63,979 nt of DNA from Octopus sinensis (lineage: Eukaryota): positions 76,074,001 through 76,137,979 of the forward strand of contig NC_043001.1 of assembly GCF_006345805.1 (NCBI RefSeq). The letters are read 5' to 3'. Below the pieces are notes generated by a model. The model had not been told where the DNA came from. It made no database searches and saw nothing but the letters and a program-made list of their open reading frames with translations. Below are positions 19,449 to 36,584 of the stretch, piece by piece. Both the position numbers and the translations under genes were made by a program. Each line of letters opens with the position of its first letter. The stretch's first letter is position 1.

Positions 19449-20193
19449 TATGTATGTATGTATGTATGTATGTATGTATGTATGTATGTATGTATGTATG
19501 TATGTATGCATGTATGCATGTATGCATGTATGCATGTATGTATGTATGCATTTATGTATGTATGTATGTATATAATTCAAATCAGTTTGATTCGGATTCC
19601 ATGCTACTTCAAATTTCGAACGCCCAAACGGAGCCTTTCTCGTTAGGGTAGTAATAATATGATTATCACCACACTGAGGAGAAAGTCTCCGTTAGGTTCT
19701 TCGAAACTTAAGGTAGCATGGAATCCGAAGCATACTGTTTTGAATAATACATGTGACTCCCAATAAATGTGTTGCATACCGCTTCTTTCGTTTATCCACT
19801 CACTCATACACATATAAATGAGAGAGAGTGAGACAGTCACCAGATAGCGACAAAGGACTATATATATATAGATATATATATATATATAATATATATATAT
19901 ATATATTATATCAACAATTGAGGGTAAAATTAATTAATTAATCAATTTCACCAAGTGTTCAGTATGTAAAAGGACCATTTAAGGCGAATTCAAAATATTA
20001 CATTATATAATTAGGGCTTAGTAAAATAAATTACTTTGCCACATCTGAACTTAGTAGAAATAGATAGCAGCCAAACAAAAATTTTCTTAGCATTTCTACT
20101 ACTTAAAGAAAATTTCTCTCAGATAAGTTTACTCCAGACAGCTCACGAAGGTTTGGGGGTAAATACAGAAAAATATCACAAGTACATAGATCG

Positions 20194-20253
20194 TTGAGTA
20201 CGTCATGTTTCAAGATTAGCCAAATAAATCAGCATTTCTTTCGTCAGCTCAAA
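20194..20253 (-). ncRNA. Hammerhead ribozyme, inverted copy of 20346-20409 with slightly degenerate stem III
   Basis: Reverse complement reads TTTGAG-CTGACGA...GAAA-CATGACG-TA-CTCAA. Confidence 0.65.
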
Positions 20254-20345
20254 ATTCTTAATTTGGATTTGGAAACACTGAAGCGACCAGTTCGCTGATA
20301 GGTAAAGTTCCTTCTTTTTAGTGTTTCCAAATCCAAATTAAGAAA

Positions 20346-20409
20346 TTTGAGCTGACGAAAGGAAATGCTGATTTTATTTGGCTAATCTTGAAACGTTGAC
20401 GTACTCAAA
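20346..20409 (+). ncRNA. Minimal type I hammerhead ribozyme (PLE pLTR type)
   Basis: TTTGAG-CTGACGA-stem II-GAAA-CGTTGACG-TA-CTCAAA: 6-bp stem I, intact core, near-palindromic stem III, GUA cleavage triplet. Confidence 0.8.
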
Positions 20410-20905
20410 CGATCTATGTACTTGTGATATTTTTCTGTATTTACCCCAAAACCTTCGTGAGCTGTCTGGAGTAAACATTATCTGAGAGAAATTTTCTTTA
20501 AGTAGTAGAATGCTAAGAAATTTTTTTTTGGCTGCTATTTCTACTAAGTTCGTATGTGGCAAAGTAATTTATTTACTAAGCCCTAATTATAATGTAATAT
20601 TTTGAATTCGCCTTAAATGTCCTTTTTACATACTGAACACTTGGTGAAATTGATTAATTAATTAATTTTACCCTCAATTGTTGATATTATAATTCATTTC
20701 TCTCGGTCATACTGCCTCGGTTCTCGCGGTTAAAATATAATGTTTGCTAGATAGACCACGTGGGTGGAATGGGGAGTGCAGAATTTTACGCCTGCGCATT
20801 TTGAATATGTTGACACTGTTAGTTGGAGTGGTTCATCTGAAGCGACAAGTTCGCTGATAGGTAAAGTTCCTTCTTTTTAGTGTTTCCAAATCCAAATAAA
20901 GAAAT

Positions 20906-20968
20906 TTTGAGCTGACGAAAGAAATGCTGATTTTATTTGGCTAATCTTGAAACGTTGACGTACTCAAA
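20906..20968 (+). ncRNA. Minimal type I hammerhead ribozyme, direct-repeat copy of 20346-20409
   Basis: Same TTTGAG-CTGACGA...GAAA-CGTTGACG-TA-CTCAAA motif. Confidence 0.8.
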
Positions 20969-21149
20969 CGATCTATGTACTTGTGATACTTTTCTGTATT
21001 TATCCCCAAACCTTCGTGAGCTGTCTGGAGTAAACATTATCTGAGAGAAATGTTCTTTAAGTAGTAGAAATGCTAAGAAAATTTTTTTTGGCTGCTATTT
21101 CTACTAAGTTCAGTATGTGGCAAAGTAATTTATTTTACTAAGCCCTAAT

Positions 21150-21183
<34 letters not shown>

Positions 21184-21232
21184 CGTTATATATTTATATA
21201 GAAAGGCTTACCATTATATACATACATACATT

Positions 21233-21349: not shown

Positions 21350-21809
21350 GTGTGTGTGTGTGTGTGTGCGTGTGTGTGTGTGTGCGTGTGTGTGTGTAAA
21401 TTAAAAAGGATGGTTTACCTACAATTAGAAGCTAAAGGCAAAACTAATAGAGGTCACAAAAGTGACAAGGAGTACTGACTAGTACCGCTTTTGCTAAAGA
21501 TAAAAAGCCACAAAATCACTGTTTTAATGACTGACAAAGGGAGGTAAGTCCCCAGCGTAAAAGTGAAAACAATAAATTAAAAAGGGTATCTCACTTTGTC
21601 AATAATTAAGACAGTGATTTTGTGGCTTTTGAGTTATTTTATCTTCAGTTTGCTGACCTCTATAAATATGCCTTTAGGTTTTAATTGCTAATAAGCCACC
21701 TTTCTTAATTTTTTGTGTACACTTTTACCGTTTTGAAAATTTGCACACATTTTCAACAATTTTCTTATAAAACTGACGAAGGTAGTTGAGTTTAACACTA
21801 GGCGTTAAG

Positions 21810-21864
21810 AGCCGCTGATGAGATTTAGATGGTCGACATCAAAATTCGAAATCATGATCCGGCT
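21810..21864 (+). ncRNA. Minimal type I hammerhead ribozyme
   Basis: AGCCG-CTGATGA-GATTTAGATG(GTCGA)CATCAAAATTC-GAAA-TCATGA-TC-CGGCT: perfect 5-bp stem I, intact core, palindromic stem III, AUC site. Confidence 0.82.
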
Positions 21865-22131
21865 ATGACAGTGATTTTGTAACTTTTGAGTTATTTTAAA
21901 TCTTATCTTTAGCAAAAGCGGTGCTAGTCAGTACCCTCTATCACTTTTGTGTCATTTCGAGTTTCATAGCCAGCCGCCAACATTTTTTTCTGTAAAATAG
22001 GAGTAGCTTATCCTGTTCAGGCTATATTATTGGCATTATCCTGCGTTTGAGAATTTTTTTAAAAATCACATCTCAACGCTTCTAAAGCAAACTTCGTTCG
22101 TTTGTTTACGTTCATCGTAATTCGAACTTAT

Positions 22132-23669: not shown

Positions 23670-24308
23670 GCACGTTAGCGGTGATTATCGGAGCCTTCAA
23701 AGACAATAAAGTTCAAATTGATCTGCAAGAAGGAATTGTGAGTGGTTACAGTCCTGATGTGGAGTTCCTCACTTCTCCAAAAGAATCAACAAACGATCGA
23801 TGCACCAGCCAAGCAGTAATCAAAGTAGATTTATCGGGAAAATATCGAAGCGTTAGCCTCTATCTGGAATATGGTGAAACTCCAAAACAATGGACTTTAG
23901 ATATATCAGATTCTGCAACTGGAAATGGTTATGGTGGCGACAATGGCACCACTGGTAATATGGCCGAAGTACATATTTGCAATAAACAGCTACGTATTTA
24001 TGGTAACAATTTACCAGGTTATATGGACGCCTCTGAAAATGGCGGCCTGCTTATGAAAGTAGTTGATAACTTTGTGAAAAAAGGTGCTAAAGTCAATGTA
24101 AACATCAGCGATGAAAGTGTTGAGTGGTCACGTGGCAGGAAGCACGGTCATCTTAAATCTGAGTATCTTTTTACTCTAAATGGCCAAAAACCTTCTTACG
24201 GAAGTGTGGATTACAATATCTATATTGCATTCAATCGTGTTGTGGCAGGAGCTTACCGCAATGGCAGCGGACTATGCAAAGCAACGATTCTCTTACAAGA
24301 CACACCAG
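23670..24308 (+). CDS. Internal coding exon (213 codons, phase 1-1) of a probable secreted/extracellular protein; beta-rich domain with WTLDISDS..GNGYGGD.G and YIAFNRVV...R.GSGLC motifs
   Basis: Long pyrimidine-rich tract ending tttcAG (23668-23669). Open, complex frame xTLAVIIGAFKDNKVQIDLQEG...GSGLCKATILLQDTP. Donor GTTAGT at 24309. Length 639 is divisible by 3. The first ~60 aa of the 274-aa ORF call are translated intron (CT repeat). Confidence 0.85.
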
Positions 24309-26257
24309 GTTAGTAGATTTATTAGTTTCACTGTTGATGTATTTGTTTAAAAATATTATTGTGGAGGCTTTATTTTTTGTTAAATTCTTTTCATCGAAAA
24401 TCATTGTTTAACAATAGAAAAGTGCTGTTTTTAAATTAACTTTTGTTTTGTGTTTATAAAATACACCAGTTTAGCTCAATTTAATGTATTTATTTATAGT
24501 TATTGTTTTATCTCCTCATGTTAAATATTTTACTCTATTCAATCAAAAAAAAAGCATTATTTAAAAATAGAAATGTTTTGTTTATCTTTTCTTAAATCAT
24601 CTTTTGTTCTGTATTATTTGTTGTTATATTTCAAATTATCGTTTAAGTCATGAAAGATTAAAAATAAATTATTTTTAACGGTGGAACTCGAACTAGATAA
24701 AGCTATAAACAATAGCTGTTATAGATAACAGACTGTAGAATATCTTTCGCAGTTTCTAAATTTTTATATCAACAACGTGAAATTCAAACTGGGGAGAACA
24801 AAGCTTCTAGAATGGACAAAGGAAATTCCAAGGGTTGCTTTAGTATAATGCTCTAACGGCTGTCATGTTTACAGAAGATTTGGGTTCGATTCTGGCGGGC
24901 AGCATTTGTCTTTTTCCATACAAGGAATTTTTAAACAGTATTCTGCAGGCTATCATTTGTAGCTATTTATTTAGTTCCCTCGTTAAAATAACGATTTATT
25001 TCAAATCTCACGTAGCTCTAAATCGTCATTATGTAGACAATATGTAATCCTCGCTAGTAAGAACAATGCTTCCCAAATAAACGGGAACCCAAATTCGAAA
25101 GGTTGCTTTGGTATAACGGTTAAACAGAATATTTAGGTTATCTACTTCAAACTCAGGCCGTCAAAAACAGTTTATTTGAAATTATTATATCTGTTAGTAA
25201 ATATTTGCTTCTTCGATTATCGAAACATATGTAAATGTGAAGGGGATTATGGTATTAGACGTAGTGAACGAGAGCGACAGAGTGCACGAAATTATTCGTT
25301 TCTAAATAATGCTCTTCACTTTTGATTTCATTATTTTCTTATTCTCCACACGCACACATGCACACAAACACATCTACTCACACTGTAACAAAAAAAACCC
25401 GCACGCACAAAACAAGTCACACACATAGCCACACGTGATTAAAGCTATTCTTTTATGATTTTCGGTTTAATTTTTGTAATAAATTGATTTCATGGTATAT
25501 TGTCAAGGTACATGGCCTAGTGGTATGGAGGCTAGCTCGCATGATCATAAAGTCGTGGTTTCGATTCCCGGACTTGGCGGAGCGTTGTGCTTCTGAGCTA
25601 AACACTTCATTTTCCGTTGCTCCAATCCAGTCTCCTCTAAACAAGTTCTTACAACAACTATAAAGTCCATCCTGTAAAGGACAGGTGTCCTTTCCATGGC
25701 GGGGGTGCTTGATCTCAGCCTACACTACAAAGGACGAATACCCTAACCAACAACAATAATAATAAAGCATTCAACTAGTATCTACTTAATTATCTAATTA
25801 ATTATGTAACAAATCAATCTAAAAATATTTCATTTGTAATTTTCTATACACGGAGGCGCGTAGCTTAGTGGTTAGGGTGTTAAACTCATGATCGTAAGGT
25901 TGTGGTTTCGATTCCTGTTCCGAGCGATGCGTTGCGTTCTTGAGCAAAACACTTCATTTTACGTTTCTCCAGTCCACTCAACTGGCAAAAATGAGTAATA
26001 GTGCGACAGGCCGGCATCCCGTCCAGGTGGGAAATTTCTACGCCACTGAAACTGGGAAACCGGCCCTTATGAGCCTGGTGTAGCTCAAGAAGGAACATTT
26101 TTTTATTCATTTTTTTTATTTCCTATAATGTCCTTAATGTCTTGGGACATTGCAGATATGCTTCTTCTTCTTCTTCTTCTTCTTCTTATTATTATTATTA
26201 TTATATTATTATTATTATTATTATTATTATCATCATCATTATCATTGTAATTATTAT

Positions 26258-32169: not shown

Positions 32170-33901
32170 TATATATAAGAATGAGATAAGAAAAACCAAG
32201 GCTGTGTAGATATTAGAACATTTATAGATAGAAGGTCATACAGCTGTTTCCAGGATATCTATTAATTATATCCCATCATCGGAGACAATGTGATAGGATG
32301 ATTAAGTAATACTTAATTTAGATAGGATACACAATAGAGAGTGAGGTGGGGGAAAGAAAATAGATGTGAGGTATGTAGGGATATTGAAGTTGTAGATCCA
32401 TTTTTTAGACAGAATGGTATATATATGTAAGATTCCAATACCTTATGAGTAAAATTCTTATATACACATGCTGACATATGACCAACGTTGAACCCCTTAT
32501 TCGCAATATGTATATATGTATATATAGGGGTAAAATATGAAAAATCAACGAAAATGCATATTGCAAATAAAAAAAGGCTATTTATGACAGGTAACGACAA
32601 ATATATACATTTAGATTGACTGAGGTAGTAATACGAGTCATAAAAGTCATTATTATGAGATGATTATAAGATGATAATAAAGTAAGAGAACAAAACGAAC
32701 CAATGATTTACGCAAAGCTATTCATCGTTTGAACACCGGTTAATACACGGTATCAGATCTAATAGTTCCTAAAAAAAAAAGATTATTTGTGAGGGAGGTA
32801 AGTAGTTCTGGATTATTTGTAAGGGAGGTAAGTAGTTCTGGATTATTTGAAAGGGAAGTAAGTAGTTCTGGATTTAGAGATGTGAGTGGTGTAGGAAGTG
32901 TATAGGGTTTAGTGGTTTCAATTGAAGAGTTAGTGATGTTCTGTATTGAGTTGTGTGTTCATATTTAGTTGGGGGAGAAATTTATTGATGAAAAATGCCT
33001 CTTTATTCAACTTTTATTGCATTGTGGTGTTCTGTGAACATTGGTAAAAGGGAAATATTTGGAAACCGAAGTCACTGAAAAAAATATTAACTAGCGCTAG
33101 ACTTTACCCACTAACGACTGAGCCAAAAGTGACAAAATGTGGACGTTCTAACTGTGGAACATGCCCTCACCTTCTGGAGGGTTCAGAATTCCAATTCAAA
33201 CAAGGAGAAATATTTAAGATCAAATCAAATTTCACCTGCGCCTCAGCAAATGTAATATATGTCATGACATGCATAGGATGTGGTAAACTCTATATTGGAC
33301 AAACAGGAATTTCGCTCCGTCAAAGAATCACCATTCACAAAGAGCAAATCCGTCACCCACAATACAGACAGTTAAAAGTGAGTGAACACATGGAAAGATG
33401 TGCCAGGAATCTTAATCCCAATTTCCAAATATTTCCCTTTTACCAATGTTCACAGAACACAACAATGCAACAAAGGTTGAATAAAGAGGCATTTTTCATC
33501 AATAAATTTCTCCCCCAACTAAATATGAACACACAACTCAATACAGAACACCACTAACTCTTCAATTAAAACCACTAAACCCTATACACTGCCTACACCA
33601 CTCACATCTCTAAATCCAGAACTACTTACCTCCCTTACAAATAATCTTTTTTCTCAGGAACTATTAGACCTGATACCGTGTATTAACCGGTGTTGTTCAA
33701 ACGATGAATAGCTTTGCGTAAATCATTGGTTCGTTTTGTTCTCTTACTTTATTATCATTTTATAATCATCTCATAATAATGGCTTTTATGACTCGTATTA
33801 CTACCTCAGTCAATCTAAATGTATATATTTGTCGTTACCTGTCATAAATAGCCTTTTTCTATTTGCAGTATGCATTTTCGTTGATTTTTCATATTTTACC
33901 C
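32170..33901 (+). mobile_element. 5'-truncated Penelope-like retroelement (Neptune-like) with GIY-YIG endonuclease and inverted pLTR
   Basis: ORF 33129-33557 has CGRSNCGTC...TCASANVIYVMTCIGCGKLYIGQTG...LRQRITIHK...VSEH...KEAFFINKFLPQLN. Arm 32528-33065 is inverted to 33422-33901. Flanks are (TA)n. Confidence 0.85.
32235..32286 (-). ncRNA. Hammerhead ribozyme variant (CCGATGA core) in the inverted pLTR of a Neptune-like PLE
   Basis: Minus strand reads GTCT-CCGATGA-TGGGATAT(loop)ATATCCTG-GAAA-CAGCTG-TA-TGAC. Confidence 0.65.
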
Positions 33902-34030: not shown

Positions 34031-34442
34031 CATATATACATATATATATATACATATATACATATATATATATACATACATACATACATACATACATACT
34101 ACATACATACATACATACTACATACATACATACATGCATGCATATGTGTGTGTGTACATATGGTGTCATGTGCCACACTTTTGCCACATGTAGGTGCTTA
34201 TGTGGTCGGGGACGTATACATACATATGTGTCAGTTTGTGTGTGTGTGTGTACATATACATAGGCGTAGGCATGGCTGTTTGGTAAGAAACTTGCTTCCC
34301 AATCACATAATTTCGGGTTCAGTCCCACTGCTTGGTACCTTGGGTAGCTATCTTCTACTATAGCCTCGAGCCGACCAACGCCTTGTGAGTGGATGTAGTA
34401 GACGGAAACTGAAAGAAGTCTGTTGTGTATATATATATATAC

Positions 34443-34880
34443 TCTGGGCGAATATATTGAAAGATGCGTAAAAGGTAAAACACCGAATTTCCATATTTTT
34501 CCATTATACCAATGCAAAGATTCAATCTCCTTACAAGAACGCCTAAACAAGGAAAACCTATTCATACAAAAGTACAGACCACACTTTAATATACAGACTT
34601 GGCCACTTGATCCTTACACATTCCTATTTCAAAATCAAATATATTTACCACTATTCAATAATGTTGAGGAGGTAGTTGTCCCCCTTGTCATCTATTGTCT
34701 CACTTCATTCTACACTCTCTCCATTCATTCTTACTTTTCAAGAAATCCCAAATGGCGTGATTCCTTTGTCTCAAGTAATGATTACTTCACAATGTCCCTT
34801 GAAAAGCTAATTTAAATAGCGAAAACCGGTTGGATATCACTACATTTTATGAGACTTTTACCATCCATAAAATATGTATA
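34443..34880 (+). mobile_element. Short 3' fragment of a second Neptune-like PLE
   Basis: LGEYIERCVKGKTPNFHIFPLYQC...ERLNKENLFIQKYRPHFN is clearly homologous to the C-terminus of ORF 33129-33557. Confidence 0.7.
34792..34837 (+). ncRNA. Degenerate hammerhead-like relic downstream of a GIY-YIG C-terminal fragment
   Basis: ATGTCC-CTTGAAAA-GCTA(ATTTAAA)TAGC-GAAA-ACCGG-TT-GGATAT, with a mutated core. Confidence 0.4.
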
Positions 34881-35150: not shown

Positions 35151-36584
35151 ATTTCGGAATGGTCATTTTGCCAGTTTAGCCAATAAAAACACACGCACTA
35201 TATATTTGGTGTTACTTTGCTTCAGTGTTATTTATTTTTTACATTAAACTTAATCTTATTTCGGCCAGAGTTCTTTCGTCACACTCCTGTGACCGCATCA
35301 GTGGTCCTTTGCTTTCTTCTTTCTTATTTGTGTGTCTCTCCTTACTAACCGTCAGCCGTTTTGTATTTCTATTGTATGTGTATTCATTTGCGCATGCGTA
35401 TATCTCTATGTGCGTCTATGTTTAGTTAGTGGGGGGGGGGAATGCCTGTAATATTTGTATCTTCTGTTTATATACGTTCGTGTAATTTGTTTTTGTTTTT
35501 CTTTATTCCTATTTTGTTCATGTGTTTACATCCACTTATTATTATTATTATCATTATTATTATTATTATTATTACATATGCTTGTATGTATGTATGTATA
35601 ACAACAATACTAGTAATAATGATAATAATAATAATAATAATAATAACAACAACAACAATAATAATAATTATTATTATTATTATTTTTAATTTTTTTAGAT
35701 GTATATAGTTATTTACTTCCATTTTTTTTATTTATTTGTGTATTTTATTTTATTATGTTTTCAGAGTGTCATGTTCGTTGGCACTACCCCTAGAGGTGAA
35801 CTGGCATACCGCTTTAGAAGGACCCTAGACAAACTTAAGCTAAGGATTAAGGTTGTTGAAAAGCCAGGCAACCCTATCAAATCCATAATCGGTAGAACCT
35901 ACCCTTTTAGTAGAACCCCCTGTACGGATAGGTACTGTACTGTGTGTAGATTTAGCCCACAAACAAACTGTAAAGCCAGAAATGTAGTCTATAGTATAAG
36001 ATGTATAGAGGGACGGTGCAGTAACAAGACAACGATATACGTAGGGGAAACAGCACGAAGCATAGGAGAGCGAATAAATGAACATTGGAGAGACAAGAGG
36101 AAGGAAAGAGCTCATCAATTATATACCAACACGCTGAGCAGGAACACGGGGGCTCAATCAACAACATAGAAGTTAAAATCTTGTCCACACATAGAACAGA
36201 CGCAACAATCAGACAAATTACGGAAGCTACACACATAATAGGAGATAAACCTAGCCTGAATAGGAAACTGGAATAGAACACTATCACACACCACAACATA
36301 TGACAGAAGAGGATCCCCATAAACTGGTTACAATATAAGCAAAACTGAAAACATAATAAAATAGAATACACAGATAAATAAACAAGTGGAAGTAAATAAC
36401 TATATACATTAAAATTTTTTTTAAATTTATTATTATTATTATTATTACTAGTATTGTTGTTATACATACATACATACATATATACATCCATACATATATA
36501 CATACATACATATATACATACATACATAAATACAAGCATACGTAATAATAATAATAATGATAATAATAATGATAATAATAATAA

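Follow-up and report, generated by a model that had tools for sequence, protein, structure and literature searches.

The element described here lies in a stretch of 63,979 nucleotides from Octopus sinensis (contig NC_043001.1, positions 76,074,001 to 76,137,979 of assembly GCF_006345805.1, forward strand), which is referred to throughout as the window. It consists of two arms joined head to head and is built from a unit that is numbered m1 to m559 over window positions 20278-20836. The features are the following:

19859-19908: (TA)n target, left flank
19909-20279, minus strand: inverted arm, a unit truncated on its 5' side (m40-m414), with its outer 3' end at site B within (TA)n
20190-20255, minus strand: third hammerhead, with altered stem III
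20278-20279: 2-nt microhomology at the head-to-head junction of both arms, a junction unique in the genome
20278-20836, plus strand: direct arm, one complete unit of 559 nt (m1-m559)
20280-20319, plus strand: '40-bp spacer', the first 40 nt of the direct arm that are not mirrored by the inverted arm; locus-specific
20346-20409, plus strand: type I hammerhead 1 (core 20352, predicted cut after 20403)
20585-20600, plus strand: site A within the full unit (junction at about 20593), TA-rich, one of two fixed insertion 3' ends
20643-20672, plus strand: 13-bp hairpin between sites A and B
20680-20691, plus strand: site B within the full unit (junction at about 20687), 94 nt beyond site A
20837-21157, plus strand: final, incomplete unit of the direct arm (m1-m323), which ends within (TA)n at site A
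20906-20968, plus strand: type I hammerhead 2 (core 20912, predicted cut after 20962)
21158-21185: (TA)n target, right flank

The structure in the window is real and is one insertion of a dispersed, ORF-less family. A first-pass annotation had described an element without open reading frames, with inverted arms, a direct copy of a 40-bp spacer and part of the arm, and (TA)n on both sides, and this outline is confirmed. In reverse complement, 20317-20691 aligns with the left arm (19904-20282) with 361 of 369 aligned bases identical and 16 gap positions, and the direct repeat aligns 20278-20600 with 20837-21160 at a period of 559 (312/319 identical). No ORF that reaches 120 aa extends into the element, and all six frames of the unit are rich in stop codons. 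The spacer is present at this locus but is no feature of the family; it is incidental because the 17-mer across the window junction has a single genomic occurrence, and the offsets between inner ends elsewhere range from 2 to 498 nt. The small indels between the copies had been attributed either to youth or to read errors. The middle unit carries eight deleted bases and two insertions against three substitutions, and contigs from all four public runs compared speak against several of its gaps, so that the small indels are probably for the most part consensus errors. Youth is instead indicated by the substitutions, since 208 units of the family differ from the column majority by only 1.5%.

Type I hammerhead cores are located at 20352 and 20912 on the plus strand and at 20247 on the minus strand. 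The two same-strand motifs, which the first-pass annotation had placed about 560 nt apart, are both intact in their cores, and their predicted cuts delimit a unit of 559 nt. The third, which had been counted with them, lies on the opposite strand and has a weakened stem III with a self-duplex of -3.4 kcal/mol, as compared with -10.8 kcal/mol for the self-complementary stem III strand of the plus-strand motifs. Its stem III allele occurs once among 128 units, and this hammerhead is probably either damaged or the product of a consensus error. A search of the window at the Rfam gathering level matched no family, and the hammerhead call therefore rests on a descriptor, which is satisfied in 1 of 2000 shuffles of the unit, together with conservation in the sister families. 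The minimum-energy fold of the lone motif pairs the core with stem III (-9.6 kcal/mol as against -9.2 kcal/mol for the active monomer). This slight preference for an inactive fold, along with the self-complementary stem III, matches the expectation for a motif that acts as a dimer, as put forward in PMC4209133. Two or more same-strand hammerheads are carried by 34 of 58 insertions. An isolated hammerhead-like descriptor match with a weak stem II is also found at 21806-21865 on the plus strand (core 21815).

Several neighbouring features were observed in the window. Directly to the left of the element, at 19566-19819, lies a separate and older two-armed repeat bearing a hammerhead, with arms (19571-19658 and 19662-19752) that are about 80% complementary, one of them some 60-70 nt longer than the other. 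It has 812 first-look candidates in the genome, and its relatives are mostly 70-85% identical, several of them with hammerhead cores. To the right, an exon-like frame of 214 aa (23670-24313, plus strand) follows a splice-acceptor-like site; it has no significant Pfam match, and it may belong to a gene that has the element in an intron further upstream. A donor-like GTA and an acceptor-like pyrimidine-AG are located about 20 nt apart at 20300-20321. Both are retained in a sister family despite different flanking sequence, and they are possibly a relic of a PLE (Penelope-like element) 5' UTR intron.

A first-look search of the 2.7 Gb genome with the unit returned 2229 candidates, of which 40 were scored, with full units 90-97% identical. 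A count of genomic copies, which had been proposed as a check in the first-pass annotation, gives 381 exact copies of a hammerhead 21-mer and confirms a dispersed family. All samples were chosen by similarity to the window copy. The cut-to-cut unit length is 551-575 nt and the unit GC content 0.34. A sister family has a 558-nt unit that shares 447 identities with that of the window family at 105 mismatches (about 80% identity), the same A and B sites, and a hammerhead whose stem III is an 8-nt palindrome and whose cut triplet is GUU. Its copies (for example L144:761-1318, among loci L132-L160) are 95-100% identical and form arrays of at least five units at L157/L158. A third family is more distant, with profile matches down to E 1e-12. 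It has its own hammerhead (L174, L178, L187), the AT-rich hairpin that separates its two end sites is expanded, and its insertions are mostly short and two-armed. Both sister families retain the hammerhead core with differing palindromic stems III. At the compound locus L050:956-3349 insertions of the sister family and of family 1 adjoin in one TA tract, which also holds short extra inverted pieces. The freely accessible papers that were searched yielded no description of the family nor of such a count of A and B ends.

Copies of the family are 5'-truncated head-to-tail arrays that terminate on the outer 3' side at one of two positions, site A near m316 or site B near m410. The interval between the sites, which is 94 nt in both the window and the sister family, forms the one-sided 'tail' of the insertions. 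The 13-bp hairpin within this interval is free of substitutions in 14 units of families 1 and 2 and may be a protein-binding motif, and site A would represent a start of reverse transcription. Forty of 58 distinct insertions are two-armed and head to head, and their ends follow a strict pairing: 34 carry one A and one B end, five have one non-canonical end and only one, the compound L050, is A+A, so that among the pairs with canonical ends 34 of 35 are A+B (p=1e-9). A recount based on motifs gave 31 A/B insertions, with a same-type pair only at L050. A second, fresh set of 40 loci, selected through the hammerhead 21-mer, contributed a further 18 A+B insertions and no A+A or B+B, the remaining 22 loci being one-armed, truncated or cut by the edge of the region. 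When these samples of the window family are pooled, 52 of 53 mirror-image insertions with both canonical ends carry one A and one B. The sister family, with 15 A/B insertions out of 15 (from 27 loci), repeats this near-absolute rule. An apparent B/B locus of the sister family was rejected as an internal unit cut by the locus edge, and a shifted B site (m431) as a BLAST alignment that ran into the TA flank.

A TA-rich flank is found at 74 of 98 outer ends as against 6 of 18 free 5' ends, and sites A and B each share 4-8 nt with (TA)n; target-site duplications are unreadable where the ends lie within (TA)n. The inner junctions are different at every locus and mostly consist of overlaps of a few bases, which rules out a MITE or foldback DNA transposon with a fixed terminal-inverted-repeat unit. 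The positions of the inner ends are non-uniform (KS p=0.003), probably due to the choice of sample.

Both arms of an insertion, judged by the variants that they carry, derive from one source. Diagnostic variants are common to the two arms in 16 of 18 cases, which come from the 13 informative insertions among 36 with two arms (mean after shuffling 0.06, maximum 0.25), and distances rise from 0.94% within an arm to 1.21% between the two arms and 2.26% between separate insertions. A shared haplotype would also be accounted for if the family were mobilised by a PLE and the inverted arm arose by fold-back self-priming of a single cDNA or from an antisense template, and a fold-back model has been proposed for Penelope elements of rotifers (PMC3846280). 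The near-perfect palindromic junctions at five loci (L042, L111, L225, L252 and L253) would also follow from it, and the window locus is compatible with it, its B arm being contained in the A arm. Fold-back copying requires nested arms, however, and there is no containment in either direction in 8 of 30 simple A+B insertions (four were skipped as complex) and in 7 of 17 in the fresh sample (one skipped), which excludes it at 15 of 47 loci; the arms are nested in the other 32, the window locus included. Moreover, either the A or the B type can form the longer arm, and fold-back leaves the strict A+B pairing without a reason. As a general account it is improbable, although the palindromic junctions and the nested loci suggest that fold-back may make some of the insertions.

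The non-nested loci also bear on the possibility that the inverted structure is a fold-back artefact of the assembly, raised as a potential refutation in the first-pass annotation, or of the reads. The window copy is rich in indels, and its junction is not among the joints listed in four contig sets, which cannot show absence. On the other hand, a folded read likewise requires nested arms, more than 50 other loci obey the same end rule with different junctions and flanks, and the head-to-tail joint is present in contigs of all four runs. The probability of an artefact is consequently negligible.

The reading that best accommodates these findings, held with a probability of roughly 0.8, is that the element is a single recent insertion of a protein-less hammerhead family that was likely copied into (TA)n by a Penelope-like RT/GIY-YIG protein encoded elsewhere. 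According to this model a PLE RT-endonuclease supplied in trans, probably as a dimer, would nick both strands of the (TA)n target, upon which each target 3' end would anneal through 4-8 nt to one of the two AU-rich loop sites, A or B, on one RNA. Two reverse transcriptions would then proceed toward the 5' side of the RNA and halt at variable points, and the two cDNAs would be joined head to head through microhomology. In the window, the copy primed at B would have given 19909-20279 and the copy primed at A would run from 21157 back to 20278; the template would have to be longer than one unit, or circular. Non-nested arms favour two primings on one template over fold-back.

The genome offers ample candidates for such a helper: GIY-YIG candidates number in the thousands, and there are intact open frames of 775-781 aa that encode RT + GIY-YIG. 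The helper elements are presumably Neptune-like and of other clades, to judge by their motifs. The window itself holds fragments of GIY-YIG endonuclease frames from at least two PLE families (33048-33557, 34402-34815 and 35699-36169). The fragment at 35699-36169 belongs to a family with 6027 first-look candidates and a 3' repeat that ends in (TA)n, one copy of which has an extension of about 55 nt. At the 50 GIY-YIG and 15 further PLE-protein loci examined, out of the thousands of candidates in the genome, searches by BLAST and with a profile built from six natural units failed to show the unit as a PLE terminal repeat, and no PLE open frame was found upstream of 40 hammerhead-anchored loci. 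Mobilisation by a PLE is suggested by the anatomy of the insertions.

It is conceivable that the units are simply the truncated ends of an autonomous PLE and that the arrays were produced later by unequal crossing-over. Local amplification of single terminal repeats has been proposed elsewhere (bioRxiv 10.64898/2026.07.22.740005), and blocks of variants at L004, L020 and L038 suggest some duplication at the DNA level. Nevertheless, no copy examined enters an ORF and in every longer one of them the unit is preceded by another unit; multimeric arms can occur on both sides and end at A or B, and the sister family has kept the unit length at about 80% identity. This origin is considered even less probable than general fold-back.

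The form of the template can be narrowed down to some extent. Inner ends fall within 10 nt of the hammerhead cut in 4 of 84 cases, as compared with 3.2 expected, and the lack of a pile-up at this site means that the template was an uncut multimer or a circle, not a cleaved linear monomer. Private variants are present in all covering units of an insertion in 27 cases (seven of them across both arms), which calls for a one-unit bottleneck at some stage; 23 others occur in only some units and include blocks that resemble later DNA duplication. A linear-versus-circular register test found no difference between arms in register (1.08%) and out of register (1.05-1.11%). Given this absence of a register effect and the 27/23 split of the variants, an RNA circle made by the hammerheads is a plausible template, at slightly less than even odds.

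Structure predictions for the unit point to a strongly self-paired RNA. The predicted circular fold has a z-score of -5.0 for the window copy and of -4.2 to -8.0 for five units (25 shuffles each). In a two-family consensus fold, in which 11 of 127 pairs show two-sided changes, sites A and B lie in or beside small loops flanking the 13-bp hairpin. Cross-family covariation lends this fold mixed, moderate support: in an independent test the changed pairs that were kept did not exceed the null (p 0.24-0.62), and two-sided changes numbered 13-17 against 5.7-6.9 expected. Pairing of A with B in one stem, seen in short fragments (z -2.1 to -2.8 in four of five, -0.4 in the other), was rejected since whole-unit circular folds predict 2.0 A-B pairs in the window unit and 0.0 in the others. 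Hairpin counts of zero for family 2 in the whole-unit folds are unreliable, the fixed motifs being mismatched.

The first-pass annotation had interpreted the element as retrozyme-like, proposing that the two plus-strand hammerheads of the transcribed locus could cleave as a dimer in cis and that the released monomer of about 560 nt could circularise. At the level of the family the retrozyme-like reading stands, on account of the tandem ORF-less hammerhead units, the self-complementary stem III, the self-paired predicted fold and the youth of the copies; what it overlooked is that the inverted arm, the spacer and the TA flanks constitute a PLE insertion signature. For the window locus itself, cleavage in cis has in its favour the two intact cores with their self-complementary stem III strand, the strongly structured circular fold, the frequency of insertions with paired same-strand hammerheads and the retention of the core in two sister families despite different palindromic stems III. 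It has to be set against the inactive local minimum-energy fold and the GUU cut triplet of the sister family, as well as published work in which eight of nine frog retrozyme dimers showed no cleavage in vitro (bioRxiv 10.64898/2026.07.22.740005) and the hammerhead of an anole PLE was dispensable for insertion in vitro (PMC11167929). In addition, read-through transcription from upstream would include the 370-nt inverted arm in the same RNA, where it could bury one plus-strand hammerhead in a long duplex, and the window locus would for this reason be a poor source of cut monomers. Production of a circle by this particular locus is accordingly rated unlikely. The four public runs, available as contigs only and none of them RNA on record, contain the head-to-tail joint throughout, DNA runs included; the unit is covered and its joint spanned in two runs presumed to be RNA, which says nothing about expression or circles.

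If the preferred model of two primings on one RNA is extended to a circular template, a dimeric Penelope protein would prime a (TA)n break at two loops of a ribozyme-made 560-nt circle and roll round it in both arms. This extension is offered tentatively and is rather less probable than its negation. Were it true, copying of a circle would make the arrays of retrozymes and the inverted-plus-tail signature of PLEs in one step, and would connect the model of animal retrozymes based on circular RNA with the integration mechanism of PLEs, which is unsolved, with a minimal substrate for testing. The mechanism behind tandem, inverted and tailed PLE insertions is given as unsolved in section 15 of PMC8557442, and the link between animal retrozymes and PLEs has so far been drawn, in the accounts consulted, from co-occurrence and similarity of terminal repeats. 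The young octopus family supplies direct evidence for that link from insertion signatures, and its 560-nt RNA, on which two start sites are defined, would make a small substrate for work in vitro.

On its sequence features the element would be filed as an animal non-LTR retrozyme or as a non-autonomous PLE, with the reservation that retrozymes are defined by cleavage and circular RNA. A plant-type LTR retrozyme, with type III hammerheads in direct LTRs, is ruled out by the type I topology, the multimers and the inverted arms. With animal non-LTR retrozymes as described in PMC7229834 and bioRxiv 10.64898/2026.07.22.740005 it shares ORF-less tandem units with one type I hammerhead each, a GC content below 50%, a strongly self-paired predicted RNA and the presence of PLEs in the same genome. 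Its unit length, given as 559-569 nt in this comparison, lies outside the 150-450 nt of the former source and inside the 51-972 nt of the latter. It differs from these retrozymes in that its arrays are short and dispersed and have inverted arms and two fixed ends, and in that no matching autonomous terminal repeat was found at the 65 PLE-protein and 40 hammerhead loci. Target-site duplications in animal retrozymes exceed 4 bp when present, and would here be masked by (TA)n.

The resemblance to endonuclease-positive PLE insertions (PMC8557442; PMC3846280) extends to partial tandems, an inverted 5'-truncated copy, a one-sided tail, a (TA)n bias (PMC8557442) and a hammerhead with a palindromic stem III. 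Fixed 3' ends, the head-to-head inverted copy, the tail at one end and the bias for a microsatellite target are all found in the octopus family, whereas the RT/GIY-YIG frame of an autonomous PLE is absent, the repeated unit being the whole element, and the tail measures 94 nt as compared with 30-40 nt in described PLEs. Chlamys elements such as MRC1 are likewise non-autonomous PLE derivatives with multicopy head-to-tail insertions, but their 3' ends are similar to those of autonomous families and most of them have no hammerhead, as described in PMC8557442. The closest mechanistic parallel to two primings on one RNA is provided by Poseidon of the green anole (PMC11167929), for which two internal starts of reverse transcription are reported to delimit the tail in vitro, both strands of the target are cut and extended and a dimer is predicted. 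The AT-rich target is common to both systems, and so would be the two start sites bounding a tail, the extension of both strands and copying that does not depend on a hammerhead cut. The start sites of Poseidon have no homology to the target, whereas here 4-8 nt are shared with (TA)n, and no strand preference was seen in that study, in contrast to the octopus family where the two ends almost always take different sites.
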